From positions 5,020 through 69,019 of the forward strand of contig JBAVYM010000009.1 in assembly GCA_049698775.1 (NCBI GenBank): a stretch of 64,000 bases of DNA. The letters are read 5' to 3'. The notes below the pieces were generated by a model. It had not been told where the DNA came from. It did no database searches and saw only the letters and a list, made by a program, of their open reading frames with translations. Shown piece by piece: positions 7,674 to 26,528 of the stretch; the first letter of the stretch is position 1; each line of letters starts with the position of its first letter. Position numbers and translations under genes: made by a program. The DNA comes from Gammaproteobacteria bacterium. GTDB taxonomy: Bacteria > Pseudomonadota > Gammaproteobacteria > Natronospirales > REEB76.

Positions 7674-8804
7674 TCAGTGCGCTTTGTCAGATTCATCTTT
7701 TATCCGTGTGTCCGTCGCGACCCAATTTACTTCCCAAGTCTTGCCTCCATCATCCGAGAACGCCTGATCGAATCTGACTGCATTCCGAGTGATATCCGAA
7801 ATATCAAATCGAACCAAAATGGTTCTGCCGTTAAATGATTCCTGATCTATAAATTCATCGCGTCCATTTTTGAACTCGCCAATCGTGGGTGCATTCAGGG
7901 TACCGCCGCTGCTGTTGGCAACATTGAGGCTCCACTGCCGGGATTGGGGATTGAATAGACGCAGCGACAGAAGTTCAAGGTGACCTGCTGGGCCACCGGC
8001 CTCAAGCTCTGCCAGATTGGCGCGGCCGTTCCAAACCGAGCGGACGACGGTAGTGCCTTCATATCTGACCCAGGCAGCGGAGCCGGTCAGTGGATGCAGG
8101 AGCCGCCGTATATGACTTTTCCAGGTACCAATCTCGAAGTCAAAATCGCGTTGGCCGCCGCGCTCTGTGCCGGCATGCCGCCATCCTGTTTTGGCGGCGA
8201 CGTGCTTTTCTCGCGTCACCGTTACAATCCAGTTCGGTTCCCAAGTCTTGCCGCCATCCTTTGAGAAAGCCTGCTGCCAGTGATAGGAATTCGGTGTGAT
8301 GTCCGACCAGGCATGTCGAACAAAGATGGCCCTGCCGTTGAATTGTTCCTGGTCATAAAATAGGCCGCGCCCATTCTTGAACTCGCCAATCATGGGTGGA
8401 CTGAGGACGCCATCCCGACTATTCGCCATATACAAATACCACTGATGGGACTGGGGGTTGTAGAGGCATAACCGTAGCTCTTCAATTGGCCCCGTTGGAG
8501 TATCAACTTCGATCTCCTGCAGATTGGAACGGCCGCCCCAAACCTTGCGAACGACGACAGTGCCATTGAATTCAGTCCATGTTTTTGAGTCAGTAAGCGG
8601 GTGCTGGAGATGCAATATGTGGACTTTCCAGGTACCAATCGCGAAATCAAAATCGTGTTGCTCGTCCCGTTCCGACGCAGCCTGTTTAGGGCTGAGGTTC
8701 GATGTATTGGAACTCTGCTGTGCGAATCCCTGCAGGGGCAGCGCAATAGTAACCAGGCTGCACACCAGGAGATAAGCCCGAATACGTTTGAGCGCATTCA
8801 TCAC
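7674..8804 (-). CDS. Secreted protein of unknown function built from two tandem ~160-aa homologous domains
   Basis: Signal peptide MMNALKRIRAYLLVCSLVTIALPLQGFAQQ. Domain 1 reads HDFDFAIGTWKVHI...IGEFKNGRGLFYDQEQFNGRAIFVRHAWSDIT...FSKDGGKTWEPNW. Domain 2 reads RDFDFEIGTWKSHI...IGEFKNGRDEFIDQESFNGRTILVRFDISDIT...FSDDGGKTWEVNW. Confidence 0.75.
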   Translation of the reverse strand: MMNALKRIRAYLLVCSLVTIALPLQGFAQQSSNTSNLSPKQAASERDEQHDFDFAIGTWKVHILHLQHPLTDSKTWTEFNGTVVVRKVWGGRSNLQEIEVDTPTGPIEELRLCLYNPQSHQWYLYMANSRDGVLSPPMIGEFKNGRGLFYDQEQFNGRAIFVRHAWSDITPNSYHWQQAFSKDGGKTWEPNWIVTVTREKHVAAKTGWRHAGTERGGQRDFDFEIGTWKSHIRRLLHPLTGSAAWVRYEGTTVVRSVWNGRANLAELEAGGPAGHLELLSLRLFNPQSRQWSLNVANSSGGTLNAPTIGEFKNGRDEFIDQESFNGRTILVRFDISDITRNAVRFDQAFSDDGGKTWEVNWVATDTRIKDESDKAH

Positions 8805-8904
8805 TGCCTCCTTAAAGTCGTCTGTCTATCCGGCCTGGAAAGCAAGTCGCCGAGAACCTGAAGATCATCTACACCGTCGCCATAGCGGATTACGACACCG
8901 ACGG

Positions 8905-9372
8905 TCAGGTTTTTGGCGCATCCGCCAGGCGCTGCGCGGACTGGGCAAACGTGTAACGCCAGCCGGTGGCAGTACAGAGGTACATGTCGCTAAACCAGGC
9001 GCGATACTCGAAGGGTTTGCCGCCTTCGCTGCCCTTGGCCCAGAGCAGCGCAGTGAGGACCGCGGTCTTGCCCCAGACCCGCACCTTCTGCCGGCTGTCG
9101 TCCTGCCTCTCGTAGATGATGCGGCCGCTGCGCGCTTCCGTCAGAAAATCGGCTTTCGTGTAGACCGCACCCTTGCCGTTGACCAGTATGAAATCATTTG
9201 CCAATAGCCGGTCCATAGTGGCAGCGTCATTCTTTGCTACCGCCGCTTGGTATTCAGTATCGAGCGCCGCCACCAGGGCTAGGGCATGCTCTGGCGAGCA
9301 GTCAGGCCCAGGCGCGGCCAGGACAGAAAAACCGGAGATGAGTAGGGCCAAGGCGAGTAACAATTTTTCCAT
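8905..9372 (-). CDS. Secreted DUF4440/SnoaL-like (NTF2-fold) protein
   Basis: Signal peptide MEKLLLALALLISGFSVLAAP. Then LDTEYQAAVAKNDAATMDRLLANDFILVNGKG...WRYTFAQSAQ, typical of nuclear transport factor 2-like DUF4440 proteins. Confidence 0.65.
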   Translation of the reverse strand: MEKLLLALALLISGFSVLAAPGPDCSPEHALALVAALDTEYQAAVAKNDAATMDRLLANDFILVNGKGAVYTKADFLTEARSGRIIYERQDDSRQKVRVWGKTAVLTALLWAKGSEGGKPFEYRAWFSDMYLCTATGWRYTFAQSAQRLADAPKT

Positions 9373-9563
9373 GATGAACTCTTCTTTACGGGCAGGCGTT
9401 GCCCGGATCTGGCTGGTGGAACGGTTCTTTATTTGGTTTTAATGGCAACGGCGGCTCCGTATGATGTGTATTGGTCATTTCTACGTCAGTAGAGAATGCA
9501 TCAACGATCTATACCTCCAGAACTACATTCGATTAAGTATTCGCAGCCATGCCTCAAACGGCA

Positions 9564-10565
9564 TCAGATTTCAAAACCAAAGACGAGATCATCGTAATCG
9601 TGGTCCCCGCCCCGGCAAAGATATTCACCCACCGGTCGGAATCCCAAGCGTTGGTAGAAATCCGTGGCCCGGTCGTTATATTTGTAGTCACCGAGCAATA
9701 TGCGTTTGAATCCGTTTTGCTTTGCAAACTGAATCGCTTTTGTCATGAGGCTCTTGCCCAAGCCGCCGCCCTGGAAGTGCTTCAGCAGGTAGATGCGGTG
9801 AATCTCCAAATCATCAGGTTGCACGCCGTTAAACGGCAGGCTGGGCGGCGCCGCCACGAGATAGCCCACCGGTGCATTGCAGGTTTCGGTCTCCGCCATC
9901 CAGGTTCGCGCCTTGGCATTTTCGAGCCATCTCCGGTAAGTACCGGGCGAATCGTGGTTAACACAATGTGCGAGGATGTCCTCGTCCGCAAAAGCGCCCG
10001 TGTAGGTTTCCATGAACGTGACTTTCCCCAAGAAAGTCAGGGCATCCTCATCACCTGGAGCGCATGCACGTATGTGTGTGCACTTGGACAGTCGGTGATA
10101 TTTCCCGTGTGCAACAGGCATTGGATGGAAATCAACAACATTATTGTCGGTACGCTGATTGAGCACAGGCTTGCGGTCATGCTGCGGTTTGATTAAAAGC
10201 TGTGCGCGAATGTCTTTTCTGTAAGTTGATCCGGAAATAATCTTGACGTTACCAGTCAGGGTCAATTCATAGCCGTTTTGCTGGGCCCGGATTTCATTGA
10301 CACACCTGATATTGACAATGAAAGACCGGTGTACTCTCGCGAATGGGGGCGTTGGCAATCTGCCTTCAATGTGGGTTATGGTTTCCTTGGTGTGGATTGT
10401 CTCTCCACTGACCATGACAATGCCAATGTAATTGCCGGAGGCTTCCACATACATGATCTGTGCCGGGTCAATAAGCTTGATGCGGGTTCCGACTTTTACA
10501 GAAAGCTTGTCCGCCATGATTTTTGTCTCACTGGGAACAAGGTCATCAACTTCTGGATTAAACAT
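9564..10565 (-). CDS. Fusion protein: N-terminal LytTR DNA-binding domain + C-terminal GNAT N-acetyltransferase domain
   Basis: LytTR: KLSVKVGTRIKLIDPAQIMYVEASGNYIGIVMVSGETIHTKETITHIEGRLPTPPFARVHRSFIVNIRCVNEI. GNAT: LEIHRIYLLKHFQGGGLGKSLMTKAIQFAKQNGFKRILLGDYKYNDRATDFYQRLGFRPVG (Q/RxxGxG/A acetyl-CoA loop). Visibly lower GC than upstream genes. Confidence 0.8.
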   Translation of the reverse strand: MFNPEVDDLVPSETKIMADKLSVKVGTRIKLIDPAQIMYVEASGNYIGIVMVSGETIHTKETITHIEGRLPTPPFARVHRSFIVNIRCVNEIRAQQNGYELTLTGNVKIISGSTYRKDIRAQLLIKPQHDRKPVLNQRTDNNVVDFHPMPVAHGKYHRLSKCTHIRACAPGDEDALTFLGKVTFMETYTGAFADEDILAHCVNHDSPGTYRRWLENAKARTWMAETETCNAPVGYLVAAPPSLPFNGVQPDDLEIHRIYLLKHFQGGGLGKSLMTKAIQFAKQNGFKRILLGDYKYNDRATDFYQRLGFRPVGEYLCRGGDHDYDDLVFGFEI

Positions 10566-18586: not shown

Positions 18587-19228
18587 TCAGACTGCATCCC
18601 AGAAAAAACGGCCAATTGAAAAACTGGCGATCTCAATGCGATCACCCGGCAACAGCGGCCCTACGCCAGCCGGCGTGCCGGTATAGATCAGATCGCCCGG
18701 CAACAGCCGCCAGTAATGGCTTAGAAATGCAACGATCTCCGCCACCGGAAACAGCATGTCACGGGTGTTGCCCTGCTGGCGCAGTACGTCATTCACACGG
18801 CACTGCATATCAATGTTCTGTATATCCAGATTCGCCGGCCACGCAACGAGATTTCCGATCACCGCGCTGCCGTCGAAAGATTTGGACAACTCCCAGGGCT
18901 GGCCCGCCTGTTTCAGCTTAGCTTGCAGTTCCCGCAACGTGAGATCAATTCCGAGTGTCACACCGGCCACATGATCAAGCGCGTCGCCGGCTGAAATTTC
19001 TTTTCCCTCGCGCCCGATGGCCACTACCAGCTCCAGCTCGTGATGTACGCTGCCCTGGTCTTTGGGCAGCTTCAGAGGCTCGCCGACTGCCACCAGACTG
19101 GTTGCAGGTTTCATGAACACCACCGGCTGCGCCGGTTTCGGCGCGCCCATCTCCTTCGCATGCTCGGCATAATTGCGGCCGATACAGAATATACGTGGTG
19201 GAACTACAGGATGGCTCATATCAGTCAT
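18587..19228 (-). CDS. Fumarylacetoacetate hydrolase (FAH) family protein
   Basis: RIFCIGRNYAEHAKEMG...VVFMKPATSLV...HHELELVVAIG...GVTLGIDLTLRELQ...PWELSKSFDGSA...GDLIYTGTPAGVGPL. Confidence 0.9.
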   Translation of the reverse strand: MTDMSHPVVPPRIFCIGRNYAEHAKEMGAPKPAQPVVFMKPATSLVAVGEPLKLPKDQGSVHHELELVVAIGREGKEISAGDALDHVAGVTLGIDLTLRELQAKLKQAGQPWELSKSFDGSAVIGNLVAWPANLDIQNIDMQCRVNDVLRQQGNTRDMLFPVAEIVAFLSHYWRLLPGDLIYTGTPAGVGPLLPGDRIEIASFSIGRFFWDAV

Positions 19229-19276
19229 GTCTGCGTGTTTACCTGATTCAAATCCGGCAATACGCAGGAGTCAATC

Positions 19277-19591
19277 TCACAAACGATCCAGCGGGCTGAG
19301 CACGCCTTTACCACCCTTGTTCATCACGTGCGTATATATCATGGTGGTGCTCACATCCTTGTGTCCCAGCAATTCCTGCACCGTGCGGATATCGTAACCC
19401 GCCTGCAAGAGATGTGTGGCAAAGGAATGCCGCAGGACATGCAGCGTCTGCGGTTTAAATCCGTCACCGATGTACGGCAGCGCCCGATCCAAGATCACGT
19501 ACCTGGAAAAATCCAGGTACGCCTTCTCGGTGAAGGCCTTCAGCGGCTGGCGCTCGGCGCCTGCGACGGCAAGGATGGACGTATTACTCAT
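19277..19591 (-). pseudogene. Chimeric ORF: topoisomerase IV subunit A (ParC) N-terminal ~48 codons fused in frame to the last ~56 codons of an integron integrase (IntI)
   Basis: N-part [36 protein letters not shown], compared with E. coli ParC ERLALHEFTENAYLNYSMYVIMDRALPFIGDGLKP. C-part [52 protein letters not shown] is the IntI/tyrosine-recombinase box II with catalytic Tyr. Junction ~19441-19450. Confidence 0.75.
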
Positions 19592-19755
19592 GGCTTAACC
19601 CGCGGACAATGCCGGAACCGCGCTATCACGCGGCTTGCGGGCGTCATGATACCGGGTGAAAGCGCCAGTTGTAACAGGGCGTATGCAGAGGCAGAGTTTC
19701 TCTAGGTCGTGCACTGACCTCACGATTCAAACCTCCGCCATGCTAAACTCTTTGA

Positions 19756-19944
19756 ATGAAGGTCAGGGAACTTGTGACCTTGATTGAGAAGGACGGCTGG
19801 AAGCAGGTTCGCCAGAAAGGCAGCCACCGGCAATTTCACCACGTTTCCAAACCCGGCACGGTTACAATCTCAGGCAATCCGGGAGTTGATGTTCCACCGG
19901 GAACATTAAACAGCGTTTTGAAACAGGCCGGCCTTAAAAAGTAG
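19756..19944 (+). CDS. hicA: HicA-family mRNA interferase toxin
   Basis: MKVRELVTLIEKDGWKQVRQKGSHRQFHHVSKPGTVTISGNPGVDVPPGTLNSVLKQAGL. Confidence 0.85.
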   Translation: MKVRELVTLIEKDGWKQVRQKGSHRQFHHVSKPGTVTISGNPGVDVPPGTLNSVLKQAGLKK

Positions 19945-19953
19945 GTGATTCCT

Positions 19954-20172
19954 ATGCGATACATGGTTGTGGTTGAAGAAGGACCATCCAGCTTCGGTGC
20001 CTATGTACCGGATCTTCCGGGCTGCGTGGCCGTCGGAAAATCGCAACAGGAAGTCCTGAAACTTATCCAAGAAGCGATTGAGTTCCACCTGGAAGGAATC
20101 ATGGAGAAAGGGAAATCCATGCCTACACCGCATTCATCCAGCATCTTCGTTGAGATTCATCCAACACAGTAA
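19954..20172 (+). CDS. hicB: HicB-family antitoxin
   Basis: MRYMVVVEEGPSSFGAYVPDLPGCVAVGKSQQEVLKLIQEAIEFHLEGIMEKG. ATG 19954 is preceded by aggtga, and the ORF track starts at GTG 19945. Confidence 0.8.
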   Translation: MRYMVVVEEGPSSFGAYVPDLPGCVAVGKSQQEVLKLIQEAIEFHLEGIMEKGKSMPTPHSSSIFVEIHPTQ

Positions 20173-20315
20173 AATGTAGTGTCTGTTGATTGTTCCCGCG
20201 CATACCAGTGCACGGGAACCAAATTACGATTCTTTGCGCCCACGGTATGCATGGAGTTCATTCAAGAGCAGTCCGGTAACAGTTCGTCCGCAGAAATCTG
20301 GCGCGAACTCGCCTT

Positions 20316-20552
20316 TCATTTCATGGCGGAGTGCGGAACAGCTTTGCGCTCTGCTGCCGGGTGAGTCAGAAACCGTTCCACCTCGGCAGCACCCAGTTCG
20401 CGTGGATACCGCTTGCCGTGGAACAGAATAAATCGCCTGGCCCAATCCACATAAGCATCTTCCGTCCGGATGCTGTAATGCCTGAGCCGGATTGCTTCTC
20501 GAATCTGGTCGAGCAGCTTGAGTGGCTTGGAGACAGTGGTTGGAGAATCCAT
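20316..20552 (-). pseudogene. intI: Integron integrase N-terminal fragment (~65 IntI-like codons, then divergence and stop)
   Basis: LLDQIREAIRLRHYSIRTEDAYVDWARRFILFHGKRYPRELGAAEVERFLTH is the conserved IntI N-terminus. Divergently oriented to the cassette array. Confidence 0.85.
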
Positions 20553-20629
20553 ACGGAAGATTTTAGGCCGCCCTAAAATTCAAATCAAACGGTAAATTGG
20601 CACGAGATGTAGAGCCCGACCTGCTTTTG

Positions 20630-20659
20630 TTGACATTAGACGACAAAGCTCACTAAAAT
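20630..20659 (+). promoter_or_regulatory. Candidate cassette promoter (Pc-like), sigma-70 type
   Basis: TTGACA (20630-20635), 18-nt spacer, TAAAAT (20654-20659), reading toward attI and the cassettes. Confidence 0.55.
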
Positions 20660-20676
20660 CTCTCGGTCTAATTCAA

Positions 20677-20683
20677 GTTAGGC
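20677..20683 (+). other. attI core recombination site (GTTAGGC)
   Basis: GTTRRRY match gttaggc between intI and the first cassette ORF. A nearby inverted repeat ttttagg-ccgc-cctaaaa (20564-20581) contains a TTAGGC-like half site. Confidence 0.5.
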
Positions 20684-20742
20684 CGCAAAAAGTATCTGCT
20701 GTCACATGACCACACCTCCGCGTCCCGCAAATAGGCATATCT

Positions 20743-21156
20743 ATGAGTAAAGCTATTGAGAATCTGAAGTCGGCCCAGCAGCGAGCGATGGCTGGTCGTC
20801 CCAAGGTCGGCGGGTTTCCCTACCTTGCGGAAACGCTTCGCAAAGCGGGTGTAACGCGCAACATCTGGTCGCTGCCCGCCTGCCAAAGCTTGTATTTGAC
20901 CGAGCAAGGCCCGGTCGTGACGCAAGGAAGTCCTCTTATCACCGGCATGGAGGACGTACCGTCATTCAATCAAGATGCTCTCATCACAGCACTGCGGACT
21001 GACCAGGCTGGCGAAAGCACTTTCCCAGAGTTCTTGGTGGCCACTTGGAAGGCGGGCGTCGTAAGCTACGACGTGGATTTCAGCAAAAGGACCGTCACCT
21101 ACTACGGGTCGGGCGGAGAAAGTTATGTCGAGTCGTATCCTGCTGCAAAGTTGTAG
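20743..21156 (+). CDS. Cassette 1: DUF1398-family protein
   Basis: FPYLAETLRKAGV...FPEFLVATWKAGVVSYDVDFSKRTVTYYGSGGESYVESYP. Confidence 0.7.
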   Translation: MSKAIENLKSAQQRAMAGRPKVGGFPYLAETLRKAGVTRNIWSLPACQSLYLTEQGPVVTQGSPLITGMEDVPSFNQDALITALRTDQAGESTFPEFLVATWKAGVVSYDVDFSKRTVTYYGSGGESYVESYPAAKL

Positions 21157-21184
21157 GCGCATTGCGATGATCAAGACGGTTGCG

Positions 21185-21196
21185 GCCTAACAATTC
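21185..21196 (+). repeat. attC of cassette 1, left part (R'' gcctaac + aattc), interrupted by the IS
   Basis: gcctaacaattc aligns with ggctaacaactc (attC4) and gcataacagttc (attC2). It continues at 22722. Confidence 0.65.
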
Positions 21197-21538
21197 TGTA
21201 AGAGACTTCCTGTCAACAGTGCGTGCTTGACTCTCTCGTCTTAAGCTTTCAGGCGTTTGCTCGTCATCATCGCGTTGTGCGCCTTGACGGGAGGCGGCAT
21301 TGCCAGTGCGATGCGATGTTCAACGGTGCCAGACTGCATTTCTGTAAACGGTCTTGTTGAGCCGATTCTGTCGGCTCGGACCAAGGTATAAACCGCGCCC
21401 GGAGACCTCGTTCGTCCAGCGGTGTCGCCCGTGACCGGGGATCAACCGGAACACGTGGATGACGACCGGATAGTTAGTCAGGTTCTCTCTGGGTGGGTCT
21501 GACCCGTGACTACCGCTTCGCGCTGACGTAGAACCCAT
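21197..21538 (-). ncRNA. Putative bridge RNA / seekRNA encoded in the IS 3' non-coding arm
   Basis: No credible ORF. Position (downstream of the recombinase) matches IS1111-group guide RNAs. Compared with the paralogous copy at 25243-25497, hairpin 21359-21377 (GAGCC...GGCTC) versus 25402-25420 (GCACC...GGTGC) shows two compensatory pair changes. Internal ttctgtaa (21339-21346) equals core + IS terminus (21194-21201). Exact RNA ends and strand are not determinable from sequence. Confidence 0.5.
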
Positions 21539-22636
21539 TCATATCATGGCAGCGACCGTGCGAGCCTGTTTGCCGGCCGGGCGCTGCACCATGGGGTGCT
21601 TCAGCCAGGCGTCGGCGTCGTAGGCCTCGTCGTGCGCGAGCATCGCCCACAGTTGCCGCGCATGCTTGTTGGCGATAGCCACCAGCACTTTGCCAAATGG
21701 CATCCGGCAGGCCAACTGGCGGATCCAGATCTGCTCGGGCGTGGACTTCTCGGCGCTCACTGCTTGGGCACGCTGCAGGCTGCTGCGTGCGCCCTGGATC
21801 AGCAGCGTGCGCAGGTACGCATCGCCCCGGCAGCTGATGGTGCCAAGGCGCGTGTGCCCGCCACTCGAGTGCTGCGTCGGCACCAAACCGAGCCAGGCCG
21901 CGAGCTGCCGTCCGTTGCGAAAATCCTTGGCTGAGCCGAGAGTCGCGACTGCGGCGTCGGCCGTGAGCGGCCCGATCCCTGTGATGGCGCGCAGCCGCAC
22001 GCAGCGTTCATCGGCCTTGGCGTGCGCTTCAATGCGTGCATCGCAGGCACCGATACGCTCCCGCACCTCGGCCCAGTGCGCACCGAGCTCATTCAGGAGT
22101 TCGTGCGTTTCCGCAGGCAGCGCCGCGAGCTGCTCCGGATTCGCCAGCACACGACGTAGCGCCACCTCGCTCTTCGCCACCACGATCCCGAATTCGGCGA
22201 GCAGTCCGCGCAGGCGGTTGCCGATTGCGAGGCTCTCCACTTTGTAGCCCTCGCGCACCCGGTGCCACGACAGCCGCGCTTGTTGCTCGACGCTCTTCAC
22301 CGGCACAAACCGCATGTTGCCCTGCCGGGCGGCCGTGGCAATCGCCTCGGCATCGCTGCGGTCGTTCTTGGCTGTGCTGTTCTTGCGAAAGGGCTTCACG
22401 AACTGCGCCGCCATCAGCCGCGGCTGCAGGCCATAGTCCAGGCAGCGCCGTGCCCAGTGATGCGCCCCACTGCAGGCCTCCATCGCCACCACCGTACCGC
22501 CCGGTACCTGGGCGAGCCACACGCTAAACGCCTCACGCCCCAAATCCCGCCAGCCCAGTACGCGGCCTGCCGCGTCCACCTCGCACACCGAAAACACGCT
22601 CTTTGCCAAATCCACACCGATGGTTATAGTGTTCAT
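21539..22636 (-). CDS. IS110/IS1111-family DEDD transposase (recombinase), 365 aa
   Basis: MNTITIGVDLAKSVFSV...VVAMEACSGAHHW...KNDRSDAEAIATAA (DEDD RuvC-like), C-terminal Transposase_20 region ITGIGPLTADAAVA...GLVPTQHSSGGHTRLGTISCRGDAYLR. ATG 22636 is preceded by gaggaag. Confidence 0.9.
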   Translation of the reverse strand: MNTITIGVDLAKSVFSVCEVDAAGRVLGWRDLGREAFSVWLAQVPGGTVVAMEACSGAHHWARRCLDYGLQPRLMAAQFVKPFRKNSTAKNDRSDAEAIATAARQGNMRFVPVKSVEQQARLSWHRVREGYKVESLAIGNRLRGLLAEFGIVVAKSEVALRRVLANPEQLAALPAETHELLNELGAHWAEVRERIGACDARIEAHAKADERCVRLRAITGIGPLTADAAVATLGSAKDFRNGRQLAAWLGLVPTQHSSGGHTRLGTISCRGDAYLRTLLIQGARSSLQRAQAVSAEKSTPEQIWIRQLACRMPFGKVLVAIANKHARQLWAMLAHDEAYDADAWLKHPMVQRPAGKQARTVAAMI

Positions 22637-22721
22637 GGAGACTTCCTCTTCTGCTGACGGTTGTATACACACACCATCATGGCCCTCGAGGCCGTAGGGA
22701 GCAGGAAGTCTCTTTTTACTC

Positions 22722-22767
22722 AATCAAGCGGACGCGGTTCCCGCGCCGCTTATTTCAAGCGTTATGC
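22722..22767 (+). repeat. attC of cassette 1, right part (L''-L'-R' gttatgc)
   Basis: aatcaagcgg-a-cgcgg ttc ccgcgccgctt atttcaagc gttatgc, the same architecture as the other attCs. Confidence 0.7.
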
Positions 22768-22785
22768 CCCTCAAGGAGAGTTTCG

Positions 22786-23133
22786 ATGATCCCGCTGCAA
22801 GAGGTTGATGTTCACACCGACAAAAAGGTGTTCTATAAGCTGCATCTTGTCGCACCAACTGGCGCGGCCCCTTTCTCTTCCGAGGTTCTCGTTTACGACT
22901 CCGAGTTCAATCCTGCTTTTGCATCCACCGTGTCGTTTCATCAACATTTCCCAGACGCTGCTGCTGCTTTCGCCCACGCTATCAGTTGGGTCAAAGGTTA
23001 TAGCCATGCCCATGGTTACACCATCAACCGCATCGACAATCCGTGCAATTGCGAGTTTCTTTCGCAAGCCGACCAACAGCAAACCATTAACGCGGCAGGG
23101 TTCACGTTACAGGTGCAGGTAAACGGGGCATAA
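22786..23133 (+). CDS. Cassette 2: hypothetical protein (115 aa), no family recognised
   Basis: Strong RBS aaggagag 6 nt upstream. The ORF fills the cassette and ends inside attC2. Confidence 0.6.
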   Translation: MIPLQEVDVHTDKKVFYKLHLVAPTGAAPFSSEVLVYDSEFNPAFASTVSFHQHFPDAAAAFAHAISWVKGYSHAHGYTINRIDNPCNCEFLSQADQQQTINAAGFTLQVQVNGA

Positions 23134-23183
23134 CAGTTCATTCAAGCGGACGGCTACGCCGCCGCTTAATTCAGGCGTTAGGC
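23128..23183 (+). repeat. attC of cassette 2
   Basis: gcataac agttcattc aagcgg-a-cggc tac gccgccgctt aattcaggc gttaggc (R'' 23128-23134, R' 23177-23183). Confidence 0.8.
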
Positions 23184-23217
23184 CGCGCAAGCCACCGCCT
23201 CAGCAGGGTCGCCCTAT

Positions 23218-23646
23218 ATGAACACCCGGAAGCAGATCGAAGAACATATTGCCACTCAGCCCGAACCAAAACGCGGCGATATGCAAGAACTGCACCGCGT
23301 CATTCTGGCACAAATGCCAAAGTGCAAGTTGTGGTTCCTAGATGGCAAAGACGAACAGGGCAAGGTTGTCTCCAACCCAAACATAGGATACGGACTGCAG
23401 ATCATCAAATATGCCGACGGAAGAACCAAGGACTTCTATCAAATTGGCATGAGCGCAAACACGACAGGAATCTCCATCTACATCCTTGGCATCGAAGACA
23501 AGAAGTATTTGGCCCAAGCGTATGGAAAGGAGCTCGGCAAGGCGAGTGTCACCGGCTATTGCATCAAGTTCAAAAAGCTCAAGGATATAGACACTGACGT
23601 ACTCGTCGCCGCAATACGGTATGGAGTTGAGCAAACAAGCATCTAA
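23218..23646 (+). CDS. Cassette 3: DUF1801 (YdhG-like) domain protein
   Basis: MNTRKQIEEHIATQPEPKRGDMQELHRVILAQMPKCKLWF...GISIYILG...ASVTGYCIKFKKLKDIDTDVLVAAIRYG. Confidence 0.7.
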   Translation: MNTRKQIEEHIATQPEPKRGDMQELHRVILAQMPKCKLWFLDGKDEQGKVVSNPNIGYGLQIIKYADGRTKDFYQIGMSANTTGISIYILGIEDKKYLAQAYGKELGKASVTGYCIKFKKLKDIDTDVLVAAIRYGVEQTSI

Positions 23647-23670
23647 CAACTCGGTCGAGGCACGAGCGCG

Positions 23671-23727
23671 GCCTAACCCCTCGTTCAAGGCGGACGGCTG
23701 CGCCGCCGCTTAACTCCAGCGTTAGCC
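23671..23727 (+). repeat. attC of cassette 3
   Basis: gcctaac ccctcgttc aaggcgg-a-cggc tgc gccgccgctt aactccagc gttagcc. Confidence 0.75.
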
Positions 23728-23750
23728 TCCTTCCAATCATTGGGACACAA

Positions 23751-24659
23751 ATGAAACGCCTTCTTCTCGTTGCATTGCTCGCAATCTCGTTCACGGCCAG
23801 CGCCGTCGTTATTCGTAGCGATGTCAAGGATGCCAAGTATCGAGTTCCGGCTTCGGCATTTCCCGCGCTGGTCGACATGCCTGGTGAGGGACATGGCGTC
23901 CTAATTGCACCTCAGTGGGTCGTAACCGCAGCTCACGCGGCGCCAATGCAAGGCATGGAAGAAGACGTAACTATCGGCGGTGTGGCGCGCAAGGTCAAAC
24001 GTGTCATCACTTATCCGGGCTACAAGAGACTGCCTGACCAGCTGGTCAAGCAGGCCTTGGCATCCGGCGATTTCTCCAAGGCGCATGCATTTCTTGCGTC
24101 GTCCAACGATATCGCGCTGATCGAACTTGTGTCTCCAGTAACGGATGTAGCTCCCGTTCCCCTCTATCGCGGGAACAAAGAGGTGGGGATGACCGTAGAG
24201 CTTGTGGGCAAGGGCGCCACGGGCAATGGCACCGAAGGCCAGGATCCTCACAGCTCGCATCGCACCGTCTTGCGCCGTGCCTTCAACGTGATTGTCGGTG
24301 CCGACGCCCGCTATGTTTGGTATCGTTTTGACCCGCCTCCATCTGCTTTGCCGCTTGAAGGCGCGACGGGAAGCGGCGACAGCGGCGGCCCCTTGCTCAT
24401 CGGAAATGGGAGTTCAAGGCAACTCGTCGGCCTGGCCTCTTGGAGCAAATATCCACCGGGCCATCCATTTTTGAGCAAATATGCACCGGGTCGCCCATTC
24501 GTGGAAGGCCTCTACGGCGAAATCGTGTACGCCGTTCGCATCTCAAGCTACATCCAATGGATAGAAGGCGTGATATCTGTGCCCGCGAGTGCCCGTACTC
24601 GGCTTCAGCCAGCGGAGGCTAACAACTCAATCCAGCGGACGCGCTATGCGCGCCGCTGA
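23751..24659 (+). CDS. Cassette 4: secreted trypsin-like (S1 family) serine protease
   Basis: Signal peptide MKRLLLVALLAISFTASA. Catalytic triad contexts WVVTAAHA (His), NDIALIEL (Asp), GDSGGPLL (Ser). The last ~14 codons are encoded by attC4. Confidence 0.85.
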   Translation: MKRLLLVALLAISFTASAVVIRSDVKDAKYRVPASAFPALVDMPGEGHGVLIAPQWVVTAAHAAPMQGMEEDVTIGGVARKVKRVITYPGYKRLPDQLVKQALASGDFSKAHAFLASSNDIALIELVSPVTDVAPVPLYRGNKEVGMTVELVGKGATGNGTEGQDPHSSHRTVLRRAFNVIVGADARYVWYRFDPPPSALPLEGATGSGDSGGPLLIGNGSSRQLVGLASWSKYPPGHPFLSKYAPGRPFVEGLYGEIVYAVRISSYIQWIEGVISVPASARTRLQPAEANNSIQRTRYARR

Positions 24660-24672
24660 TTTCCAGTTAGCG
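24617..24672 (+). repeat. attC of cassette 4
   Basis: ggctaac aactcaatc cagcgg-a-cgcgc tat gcgcgccgctg atttcca gttagcg. Confidence 0.75.
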
Positions 24673-24690
24673 CCCACAGTAACGTTTCGG

Positions 24691-24719
24691 TTGATACGTA
24701 ACTACATTGTAGTTATAAT
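24691..24719 (+). promoter_or_regulatory. Cassette-internal sigma-70 promoter with palindromic operator for the brnTA cassette
   Basis: TTGATA (24691-24696), 17 nt, TATAAT (24714-24719). The spacer contains a 7-bp-arm palindrome aactaca-t-tgtagtt (24700-24714). Confidence 0.6.
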
Positions 24720-24725
24720 CTGTGC

Positions 24726-25004
24726 ATGACCGAGCTGCGCTTCGAGTGGGATCCGGCCAAGGCCGCCGCAAACATCAAGAAGCATGGCATCGGCTTCGAT
24801 GAAGCCAAGTCCGTGTTTGCTGACGAGCGGGCCAAGCTCATCGCTGATCCGCAGCATTCGGATAACGAGGACCGGTTCGTCCTGCTCGGGCTAAGCACAA
24901 GGCTCAGATTGCTTGTCGTTTGCCACTGTTATCGCAGCAAGAGCAACACGATCCGAATCATTTCGGCCAGAAAGGCTACGGCCACTGAGTCTCGGCAATA
25001 CTGA
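24726..25004 (+). CDS. brnT: Cassette 5: BrnT (DUF497) toxin
   Basis: MTELRFEWDPAKAAANIKKHGIGFDEAKSVFADE...RFVLLGLS...LLVVCHCYR...IRIISARKAT. Confidence 0.85.
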   Translation: MTELRFEWDPAKAAANIKKHGIGFDEAKSVFADERAKLIADPQHSDNEDRFVLLGLSTRLRLLVVCHCYRSKSNTIRIISARKATATESRQY

Positions 25005-25015
25005 TAGGTGCTCCC

Positions 25016-25225
25016 ATGCGCAAAGAATACGATTTCTCCAAAGCCAAGAAGAACCCCTACGCTCCTCAGCTCAAGAAGCAAATCACTATTCGCTTGGACG
25101 GTGATGCGATTGATTACTTCAAGTCAGTTTCGGAGGAGGTCGGGATCCCATACCAGAGCCTGATCAACCTTTACTTGCGAGATTGCGCTGCCACTCACAA
25201 GCAGCTCGACTTGTCGTGGAAGTAA
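25016..25225 (+). CDS. brnA: Cassette 5: BrnA-like (CopG/RHH) antitoxin
   Basis: MRKEYDFSKAKKNPYAPQLKKQITIRLDGDAIDYFKSVSEEVGIPYQSLINLYLRDCA. Confidence 0.8.
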   Translation: MRKEYDFSKAKKNPYAPQLKKQITIRLDGDAIDYFKSVSEEVGIPYQSLINLYLRDCAATHKQLDLSWK

Positions 25226-25242
25226 GCGGGCGCTGACAGTTC

Positions 25243-25497
25243 CGTAAGAGACTTCCTGTCAATACCGCGCGCCTCATGTTCTGGCCTTGAGCTTTCAGGC
25301 ATTTGCTGTTCAGCGTGGTGTTCTCGTGGCCGAATGCGGCTTCGTCAGTTCGATGCGGTGTTGCAACGTTGCCAGACTGCATTTCCGTAAGCGGTCTTGT
25401 TGCACCGATGGTGCGGGTGCGGACCAGAGTATAAACCGCGTCCGGAGACCTCATTCATCCAGCGGTTTCGTCGGTGTTTCGGAGATCGGCCACCCGG
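25243..25497 (-). mobile_element. Orphan, diverged copy of the IS1111-attC 3' non-coding (guide-RNA) arm, with no transposase; it interrupts the decayed attC of cassette 5
   Basis: Block-wise homology to 21197-~21450: cgtaagagacttcctgtcaa, ttgagctttcaggcatttgct, ttgccagactgcatttccgtaagcggtcttgtt..., ggaccagagtataaaccgcgtccggagacctc. Preceded by the attC start cgctgacagttc. It ends against the 3' end of ltaE. Confidence 0.7.
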
Positions 25498-25514
25498 AAA
25501 GAAGGGCGGCGCAT

Positions 25515-26528
25515 TCAGCCGGCGTGGAAATACGCACGGAATGCCGCAATGACCCGCTCCACATCTGCCGCGCTGACATCCAGGTGCGTAACCAAGCGCA
25601 AATTAGCATTGGGCAGGATCAGAATACTGGCGTTCTTCAAGTGTGCGGTCAGTGGCTGCACATGCTCCGCTGCTATGCTCGCAAAAACCATGTTGGTCTG
25701 CACGGCGGCCGGATCAATTTTTATCTGCTTTATCTGTGCCAGACCTTCAGCAAGTTTCCGGGCATTGGCGTGATCTTCCGCCAAACGTTCAACGTGGTGT
25801 TCCAGCGCGTATAAGCCCGCCGCGGCCAGGACGCCCGCCTGACGCATACCGCCGCCGAGAATCTTACGCGCGCGGTGCGCTTTGCGGATCAGCTCGCGCT
25901 TGCCCACCAGCACCGTGCCGACCGGACAGCCAAGCCCTTTTGAAAGACAGATGGAAACGCTGTCAAAATGGCGGGTGATGTCCTTTACCGGCACGCCGAG
26001 TTTCACCGCCGCGTTGAACACCCGCGCGCCGTCCAGATGGATGCCAAGTCCATGCTGGCGTGCAAAGTCCGCGGCATCTTTGAGATAGGCCAGCGGCAAC
26101 ACGCGGCCGTTCTGGGTGTTTTCCAGCACCAGCAGGCGCGTGCGGGCGAAATGCGCATCATCGGGTTTGATGGCAGCCTTGATTTTTTTCAGGTCCAGCG
26201 TGCCATCGGCTTCATATTCAACGGGGCACGGCCACAAACTTCCCAGTACCGCCGCGCCACCGGCTTCGTATTTGTAGCTGTGGCCGAGTGAGCCGATGAT
26301 GAATTCCTCACCACGTTCACAGTGCGCCATAAGCGCTGCGAGATTGGATTGCGTACCGCTCGGGAAGAACAGACCGGCCTCGTGGCCGGTCAGCTCCGCG
26401 AGTTTTTCCTGCAGGCGATTGACCGTCGGATCGTCGCCGAACACGTCATCGCCTACCTCGGCCGCGGCCATGGCGGCGCGCATCGCCGCCGTCGGCCGCG
26501 TCACCGTATCACTGCGCAAGTCAACCAT
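25515..26528 (-). CDS. ltaE: Low-specificity L-threonine aldolase
   Basis: MVDLRSDTVTRPTAAMRAAMAAAEVGDDVFGDDPTVNRLQEKLAELTGHEAGLFFPSGTQSNL...LENTQNGRV...HLDGARVFNAAV...DSVSICLSKGLG. Confidence 0.9.
   Translation of the reverse strand: MVDLRSDTVTRPTAAMRAAMAAAEVGDDVFGDDPTVNRLQEKLAELTGHEAGLFFPSGTQSNLAALMAHCERGEEFIIGSLGHSYKYEAGGAAVLGSLWPCPVEYEADGTLDLKKIKAAIKPDDAHFARTRLLVLENTQNGRVLPLAYLKDAADFARQHGLGIHLDGARVFNAAVKLGVPVKDITRHFDSVSICLSKGLGCPVGTVLVGKRELIRKAHRARKILGGGMRQAGVLAAAGLYALEHHVERLAEDHANARKLAEGLAQIKQIKIDPAAVQTNMVFASIAAEHVQPLTAHLKNASILILPNANLRLVTHLDVSAADVERVIAAFRAYFHAG

Follow-up and report, generated by a model that had tools for sequence, protein, structure and literature searches.

The 64,000-nucleotide (nt) stretch of contig JBAVYM010000009.1 studied here (assembly GCA_049698775.1, a Gammaproteobacteria bacterium; hereafter the window) contains two related non-coding arms of insertion sequences (ISs) of the IS1111 type, both located in attC sites of a degraded chromosomal integron. 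One arm belongs to an intact element, copy A, and the other, copy B, stands without a transposase gene next to ltaE. Copy A is very probably an attC-targeting IS1111-type element with a guide RNA arm, and copy B a deletion remnant from its family. The features of copy A are as follows; guide positions are given on the plus strand.

21197-22719, minus strand: copy A, intact IS1111-type IS inside an attC
21195-21196 and 22720-22721: core TC on either side of copy A
21197-21201: right-end tip TGTAA
21202-21212 and 22702-22712: sub-terminal inverted repeats, GAGACTTCCTG and CAGGAAGTCTC
22713-22719: left end TTTTTAC
21539-22636, minus strand: gene for a DEDD transposase (RNA-guided recombinase) of 365 amino acids
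21325-21531, minus strand: full-length guide (seek/bridge) RNA region, delimited by covariance model R1
21469-21479: target-loop 5' guide GACUAACUAUC
21410-21420: target-loop 3' guide GCUGGACGAAC
21386-21393: donor-loop 5' guide UUUAUAC, with helix P7 and hairpin P8 (21359-21377) next to it
21340-21347: donor-loop 3' guide UUACAGAA

The protein encoded by copy A has the Pfam domains DEDD_Tnp_IS110 (PF01548) and Transposase_20 (PF02371), and it matches the NCBIfam model NF033542, 'IS110 family RNA-guided transposase', with 317 bits against a cut-off of 140. The non-coding regions of the element comprise a 3' arm of 342 nt and a 5' end of about 83 nt, the longer one being downstream of the gene. 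The sub-terminal inverted repeats, the short 5' end and the 342-nt 3' arm together assign copy A to the IS1111 group. When its flanks are joined over one shared TC, the restored attC is as long as its neighbours. The insertion is site-specific and without a target-site duplication, and the same junction recurs in more than 70 relatives.

Relatives were collected from genomes and metagenomes. A genome scan with a right-end 16-mer returned 115 loci, of which about 15 are true relatives (mostly from Rhodanobacter, Lysobacterales and uncultured Gammaproteobacteria) and the remainder are mostly chance matches. A metagenome scan with a structured 45-nt pattern returned at least 120 loci, giving about 130 arms in all; counts for the family refer throughout to the matches listed, and the loci named L009-L112 and L116-L235 are family-level loci. 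The insertion site is common to all relatives and reads CTAAC-NNN-TC, followed by the tip and AGAGACTTCC. Where the other end lies on the contig, it reads GGAAGTCTC-TTTTTAC-TC followed by RTTCAAGSCGGAC, the rest of the attC (family-wide, TTTTTAC-TC followed by RTTCAAG).

The arms are predicted to share one RNA fold. On an alignment of 37 transposase-linked arms (A2; less than 90% identical pairwise, gene sense), RNAalifold predicted 43 pairs in nine helices. In this prediction, P1 encloses the entire structure of about 205 nt, P2-P4 run up to an internal loop that P5 and P6 close on the far side, and a second stem, P7/P8, follows P2 and is flanked by two single strands. Cells are paired in 98.0% of cases, compared with 92.8% in shuffles and 32-48% in slid controls. 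Pairs changed on both sides number 17, compared with 8.3 +/- 1.5 in shuffles and 3-4 in slid controls, and the observed value is reached in 0 of 500 shuffles. Most of the covariation is found in P3, P6 and P8, while P1, P2 and P7 barely vary and are consistent with the model only. P8 is the hairpin in which the sequence-only reading of the window had noticed two compensatory pairs, GAGCC/GGCTC in copy A (21359-21377) versus GCACC/GGTGC in copy B (25402-25420). Both pairs are confirmed, and compensatory changes affect four of the five stem pairs across the 37 relatives. Folding of single sequences was uninformative (z = 0.32 for copy A, 0.07 for copy B); the structural evidence comes from covariation.

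A covariance model (R1) was built from 35 relatives with the window left out. Copy A matches it over model positions 1-208 with 215.1 bits (E=3e-61). Searches with Rfam 15 gave no match in the window at the gathering threshold, and in 21000-25700 only chance-level matches at E<=10 (E above 2).

An internal segment had been noted to mirror the core plus the terminus of each copy. The junction TC-TGTAA of copy A (21195-21201) indeed recurs internally at 21341-21347, as does the junction TC-CGTAAG of copy B (25241-25248) at 25384-25391. In the family, the 3' donor single strand beside P7 is GUUUAC(G/A)GAAAU, or TTC-NNNNN on the plus strand, and its pentamer and the right-end tip are identical in 44 of the 45 arms listed that are linked to a transposase; these arms carry eight different tips. 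Non-majority tips (CTTAG, CTCAA, CGTAG, CTTGG, CATAA, CCTAG and, in copy A, TGTAA) agree with the pentamer in 17 of 18 cases. Since 10,000 permutations of tips and pentamers gave a mean of 18 matches and a maximum of 27, the agreement cannot be put down to chance. The 5' donor single strand, GGUUUAUACC (GGUUUUUACC in some arms), has its match in the invariant left end, TTTTTAC, on the opposite strand. Here the guide (UUUAUAC or UUUUUAC) and TTTTTAC match in sequence without covariation, because the left end does not vary. As judged from these sequences, the two donor strands would together read both sides of the circle junction, TTTTTAC-TC-tip. The tip covariation and the 17 compensatory pairs bear out the proposal that the arm is an IS1111-type guide-RNA region with a donor-type guide; this interpretation is correct, and the architecture is not new.

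The same circle junction of copy A (21211-21216 joined with 22711-22716) would form TTGACA-N17-TAAAAA, a putative promoter like the junction promoters of ISEc11 and IS492.

The target loop also follows its DNA. Its 3' side, (A)UGAA(C/U)GA, has the sequence of the target's left flank and core and varies with that flank, being GAAC at GTTC sites and GAAU at ATTC sites. Unusual sites come with a changed 3' guide, namely UGAGC-GA in L128, UGAUU-GA in L009, CGCGG-GA in L119 and CCGACA-GA in L227. At L119 (~1400-1740) and L227 (~8200-9900) the flanks are not attC-like and the 3' guide is altered to match them, changes that would amount to natural retargeting. The 5' side consists of CUGACUAAC and 2-3 further nt; it complements GTTAG in the R'' box of attC and tends to vary with the bases beyond. 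In all of this the top-strand match lies 5' of the bottom-strand match. At copy A's own site, the match of the 3' target guide is only partial.

Very probably, the 3' arm of copy A encodes a guide RNA (seekRNA or bridge RNA) of about 205 nt, closed by P1. In the target loop, the 5' guide CUAAC, with 2-3 further nt, would pair with one strand of the attC R'' box, and the 3' guide UGAAY-GA would pair with the other strand on the opposite side of the core. In the donor loop, which flanks P7 and P8, UUUAUAC would match the invariant left end TTTTTAC, and UUAC(A/G)-GA would be complementary to the right-end tip and core. By analogy with ISEc11, ISKpn4, ISPst6, ISPa11 and IS621, the RNA of copy A would be made, processed, bound by the transposase and used in the same way.

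This architecture resembles that of known systems. The seekRNA architecture of IS1111 elements, attC-targeting ones included, was published in 2024 (PMC11187229, PMC11208160), and a bridge RNA was predicted in the right end of 93% of IS1111 elements (PMC11208160). As described by Siddiquee et al. (2024, PMC11187229), ISKpn4, ISPst6 and ISPa25 share with copy A an RNA from the non-coding region downstream of the DEDD transposase gene, sub-terminal inverted repeats, insertion at one end of attC without target duplication, and two short target matches, of which the top-strand one lies 5' of the bottom-strand one. The short seekRNA of 82-86 nt given there is about the size of the target-loop stem-loop here, and the whole of about 205 nt would correspond to the 'long seekRNA'. 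An attC target is also common to copy A and the IS1111-attC group (ISPst6, ISPa21, ISKpn4, ISPa25; Tetu & Holmes / Post & Hall). The transposase of copy A, however, is only 36% identical to TnpKpn4 and 42% identical to TnpPa25. These identities would make the family a separate attC-targeting IS1111 lineage, distant from ISKpn4 and ISPa25.

The bridge RNA of IS621 and other IS110 elements (Durrant et al. 2024, PMC11208160; Hiraizumi et al. 2026, PMC13626964) is likewise bispecific, with a target loop and a donor loop, two guides per loop that read different strands, one on each side of a common core dinucleotide, and donor guides that covary with the element ends. In contrast to those elements, the RNA here lies in the right end, 3' of the gene, rather than in the left end, the sub-terminal repeats are long, and the core is TC (GA in the orientation of the IS) rather than CT. 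A long-range P1 is also predicted to enclose both loops in a three-way junction, whereas the IS621 RNA has two successive stem-loops.

Copy B lies further along the window, between the first half of the array's last attC and ltaE.

25232-25242, plus strand: first half (GCTGAC-AGT) and core TC of the last cassette's attC, recognized by sequence; the junction is of the type found in all relatives
25243-25492, minus strand: copy B, right-end arm remnant of a different IS lineage
25243-25247: tip CGTAA of copy B; a sub-terminal repeat is present at the right end only
25384-25391, 25402-25420 and 25429-25436: donor loop of copy B, with guide TC-CGTAAG, hairpin and GTATAAAC, respectively
25515-26528, minus strand: ltaE, low-specificity L-threonine aldolase (Beta_elim_lyase, E=2e-109)
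25550-25577, minus strand: GTCAGCGCG-N12-CGGGTCA, a mimic of part of the arm inside the 3' coding end of ltaE

The sequence-only reading had described about 255 bp here as homologous to the 3' arm of copy A, with no recombinase gene before ltaE at 25515, and both statements hold. Homology with the copy A arm covers its first ~250 nt, counted from the right-end tip, and runs from 25243 to about 25492. A MAFFT alignment of 21185-21545 with 25225-25520 gave 79% column identity up to about 25490, blastn gave 77% identity over 248 nt (E=1e-49), and the homology ends at about 25490-25497. Two long words, the 19-mer GTAAGAGACTTCCTGTCAA and the 24-mer GTATAAACCGCGYCCGGAGACCTC, have exactly two occurrences apiece in the window, where about zero are expected. 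No third copy of the arm was found by blastn in the window. A tblastn search with the copy A transposase matched 21542-22636 only, with no transposase homology near copy B, and no left-end repeat or transposase remnant was found when looked for beside it. No motif for a second attC half was found after copy B. A blastn search with the copy B arm had no match among the 72,556 plasmids of PLSDB, and the full copy A IS matched there within transposase genes only, at 66-74% identity.

Two stretches of the arm had been described as replaced blocks. Their identity is indeed low, but they align in the least conserved spacer, 3' of the modelled RNA, and are not replacements. Nor do they look like guides: those of copy B share no 7-mers with the flanks, direct or complementary, and those of copy A share only a few (GCATTGC, TGCGATG), which lie in a family-typical motif and were judged to be chance matches.

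Against model R1, copy B scores 88.7 bits, compared with 170-242 bits for transposase-linked relatives. Posterior values are high (~1) only at model positions ~90-208. Positions 1 to ~90 land on ltaE sequence with low posteriors, and the 5' strands of P2-P6 are flagged as broken. Retained in copy B are the loop and 3' strand of P6, the 3' target half-guide, the 3' strands of P1-P5, the variable spacer and the complete donor loop, including P7/P8 and the two donor guides. It is without the 5' strands of P1-P5, most of the 5' strand of P6 and the CUAAC target guide. In the retained part, only one of 68 near-invariant family columns is changed, and the truncation is therefore probably recent. The nearest sampled relatives are 84% identical among the matches listed, and copy B is of another IS lineage than copy A, not a diverged duplicate of it.

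The origin that we favour for copy B is the following. A second element, of a different lineage of the same family, would have entered the array's last attC at the same point. It would then have lost its left end, its transposase gene and the 5' ~90 nt of its RNA, along with the remainder of the attC, in one deletion of about 1.4 kb that stopped some 20-25 nt past the ltaE stop codon; truncation by one deletion is our inference from the remaining sequence. The 20-25 nt between this stop codon and the arm look like native ltaE downstream sequence. A deletion remnant had been one of two options put forward for this copy, and with the 5' RNA, the left end and the second attC half all gone, it is the favoured one. 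The compensatory stem changes and the co-changed tip and guide that distinguish the two copies are explained by selection for a working RNA in each lineage while it was active; they are not due to copy B being a functional gene now.

The other option was a stand-alone gene from which copy B supplies a full seek/bridge RNA in trans to the recombinase 3 kb away. An intact recombinase gene is nearby, and guide RNAs of the family work in trans from another plasmid (PMC11208160, PMC11187229). The alignment of copy B with the covariance model contradicts this idea, however, given that the missing ~90 nt include one of the two target guides as well as the 5' strands of P1-P5. No sigma-70-like promoter site was found on either strand of 25100-25750 by a scan whose pattern may not suit the host's promoter types. 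The copy is not conserved in host relatives (below). It would also bring no gain in specificity, because the remaining target half-guide is of the ordinary family type. We regard a stand-alone guide gene as extremely unlikely.

By its LtaE protein, the host is an uncultured gammaproteobacterium. In seven host relatives whose LtaE is at most ~90% identical to that of the window, the gene order is Tricorn-OmpH-ltaE, and no arm sequence was found downstream of ltaE in any of the seven. Genes for FAA_hydrolase and a permease directly follow ltaE in L244/L245 and L246/L247, which represent the empty site, and other cassettes lie between ltaE and FAA_hydrolase in L237 and L238. An arm does occur next to ltaE in L236 (SRR27973342), but this locus is identical to the window and hence not a relative. 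The missing arm in the relatives indicates that insertion and truncation are specific to the lineage of the window.

Several observations weigh against copy B being an inert remnant. Its RNA sense is on the same strand as ltaE, which is directly upstream, and no promoter-like or terminator-like site is predicted on the minus strand from ltaE to copy B; judged from the sequence, a read-through transcript from ltaE, holding the intact donor loop, is thus likely. The near absence of decay would fit a recent deletion, but it would also fit constraint, and the sample contains no full-length close relative of copy B, the best match listed being the 84% given above. The split and donor-loop-only RNAs of IS622 are active, so loss of the target loop is not by itself proof of inertness. 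Finally, the 3' end of ltaE mimics, at the appropriate distance, the 5' P1 strand that copy B lacks, by way of three lineage-specific synonymous codons.

The mimic corresponds to the 5' part of the arm RNA (21500-21527 in copy A) in both blocks and in their spacing, and its distance from copy B is that of a full-length arm. The stretch is genuine ltaE (...THLDVSAADVERVIAAF..., conserved in relatives) and not IS-derived. Relatives have GTG AGY GCC ... CGN GTG/GTA at this place, the match is made by three synonymous codons, and these occur together in none of the seven relatives. Synonymous sites are near saturation between the window and its relatives, and the chance of the three codons, with the protein conserved, is about 2%. 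When the many ways in which such a match could arise are allowed for, the likelihood is very roughly 1e-3; the mimic is probably a coincidence, and the resemblance is unexplained. A deletion by crossover between the mimic and the 5' region of the arm was considered and rejected, as about 60 nt of native ltaE follow the mimic and the junction is not at the similarity.

These features enter a second alternative, in which read-through from ltaE yields a donor-loop-only RNA that acts in trans, loading the recombinase of copy A either to act as a decoy or to serve as the donor part of a split guide, with the end of ltaE supplying the closing helix. We know of no natural donor-loop-only locus. Nothing is missing from the donor loop, P7/P8 or the two donor guides, and a minimum-free-energy fold pairs the mimic with GCAGUCUGGC. 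Split and donor-loop-only bridge RNAs work for IS622, where the donor loop alone loads the recombinase and drives donor-donor recombination (bioRxiv 10.1101/2025.05.14.653916), and diverged transposases tolerate seekRNAs (PMC11187229). By analogy, donor-loop loading could be the only route to activity for copy B. The IS622 RNAs differ, however, in being engineered and expressed from strong promoters in human cells, with an IS110-group enzyme. Moreover, the guide of copy B specifies CGTAA whereas the tip of copy A is TGTAA, so that pairing needs a G-T wobble, and the window has neither a left end that could partner copy B nor a donor junction of its type. The lack of conservation in host relatives, the arbitrary end points of other transposase-less arms (below) and the near-saturated synonymous sites, at which three helpful codons arise by chance as estimated above, all count against it as well. 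We consider this alternative improbable. A wider version is very improbable: here the read-through product would be a natural donor-loop-only bridge RNA with a helix from the ltaE end, which loads the neighbouring recombinase as a decoy (damping transposition) or as a split module, and transposase-less arms (about 1 in 4 of those sampled) would form a pool of trans-acting or hitch-hiking guides.

Truncated arms like copy B are common in the family, which favours a deletion remnant. Among the matches listed, 63 distinct arms have 1500 nt or more of flanking sequence towards the transposase; 38 of them are followed by a full gene, 10 by a partial gene and 15 by none, leaving 25 without an intact gene. 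Eight of the 10 partial genes retain the C-terminal part only. The transposase-less arms have inner ends scattered over reference positions 209-444 and model scores from 42 to 236 bits, and they grade into one another as products of one-sided decay, without making up a separate RNA-only module. Elements seem to lose sequence from the left-end side, with the RNA arm staying behind in the attC, as viewed with a search pattern that lies inside the arm and to which left-end-only remnants are invisible.

Mini-element look-alikes, with a full arm, about 50 nt and then the second attC half, were seen only at L143 (~1420-1900) and L210 (~470-950; the same as L221, ~2390-2900). These loci seem to be elements with both ends and a guide RNA whose transposase gene has been lost. 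Copy B could in principle be such a non-autonomous, internally deleted derivative (like a miniature inverted-repeat transposable element, MITE), mobilised by the recombinase of copy A; the apparent presence of these derivatives in the family and the precedent of MITEPpu9/ssr9 speak for it. It lacks, however, the left end, the left-end sub-terminal repeat and the second attC half, and its inner end abuts native ltaE downstream sequence. Of the readings considered, this has the least probability, and next to none. The precedent itself, from ISPpu9 (Pares-Guillen et al. 2025, PMC12288879), is similar in that a small-RNA module of an IS110-family element occurs elsewhere in the genome without a transposase gene. 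Unlike copy B, which has one end only and a piece of a guide RNA region, ssr9 has its own copies of both IS ends and forms minicircles, is not needed for transposition and is not a guide RNA. It was rejected as a model for solo RNA modules, being a MITE with both ends and not a guide RNA.

A truncated IS end is routine genome debris. If copy B is a remnant as we conclude, little changes, since RNA-guided IS110/IS1111 recombinases and their bispecific guides were described in 2024. The wider value lies in an abundant attC-targeting IS1111 lineage of uncultured Gammaproteobacteria, whose eight natural pairs of tip and donor guide, with a few retargeting events, make up a covariation data set for donor and target recognition in IS1111 elements. 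An RNA arm stuck in an attC also permanently disables the recombination site, and it can mark the frozen end of a degraded chromosomal integron.

Such an integron occupies the region 19.3-25.5 kb of the window. Its cassettes are on the plus strand, from about 19.7 to 25.24 kb, and the attC sites between them are all of one type.

19277-19591, minus strand: open reading frame with a remnant of the integron integrase, the last ~60 residues only (TIGR02249 positions 257-315, E=4e-31)
~23128-23190: example attC, cataac-agt-tc-attcaagcggacgg...gttaggc

As only C-terminal residues are left at 19277-19591, the integrase gene of the cassette array is decapitated, and the integron is truncated at both ends. 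Within 18587-26528 of the window, the integron is located between ltaE and an FAA_hydrolase gene. Two-gene cassettes at 19756-20172 and 24726-25225 are toxin-antitoxin-like, resembling HicA/HicB and BrnT/BrnA by eye; of these, the BrnA-like one alone has an NCBIfam match, and a weak one (E=3e-4, under the cut-off).

Two further observations concern the family at large. The arms of L016, L074, L126, L131, L134, L136, L147, L184, L198, L205 and L210 form one sub-lineage with an insertion of about 27 nt in the donor loop. It consists of a small hairpin (of the CCCGCAAGGGG type) plus UUCCUUCGGUCA and lies within the 3' donor guide, splitting it after TTC-CGT. At some of the junctions in L176 (~1650-1910), L167/L232, L127 and L137, two elements meet left end to right end (TTTTTAC-TC-GTAAGAGAC); a second arm match, of 180.7 bits, is present in L176. 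Other right-end junctions in this group of loci have a duplicated tip (GGAAGTCTCTTGCG-GGGAAGTCTCTTACG). Abutting ends and duplicated tips suggest repeated insertion at one junction.

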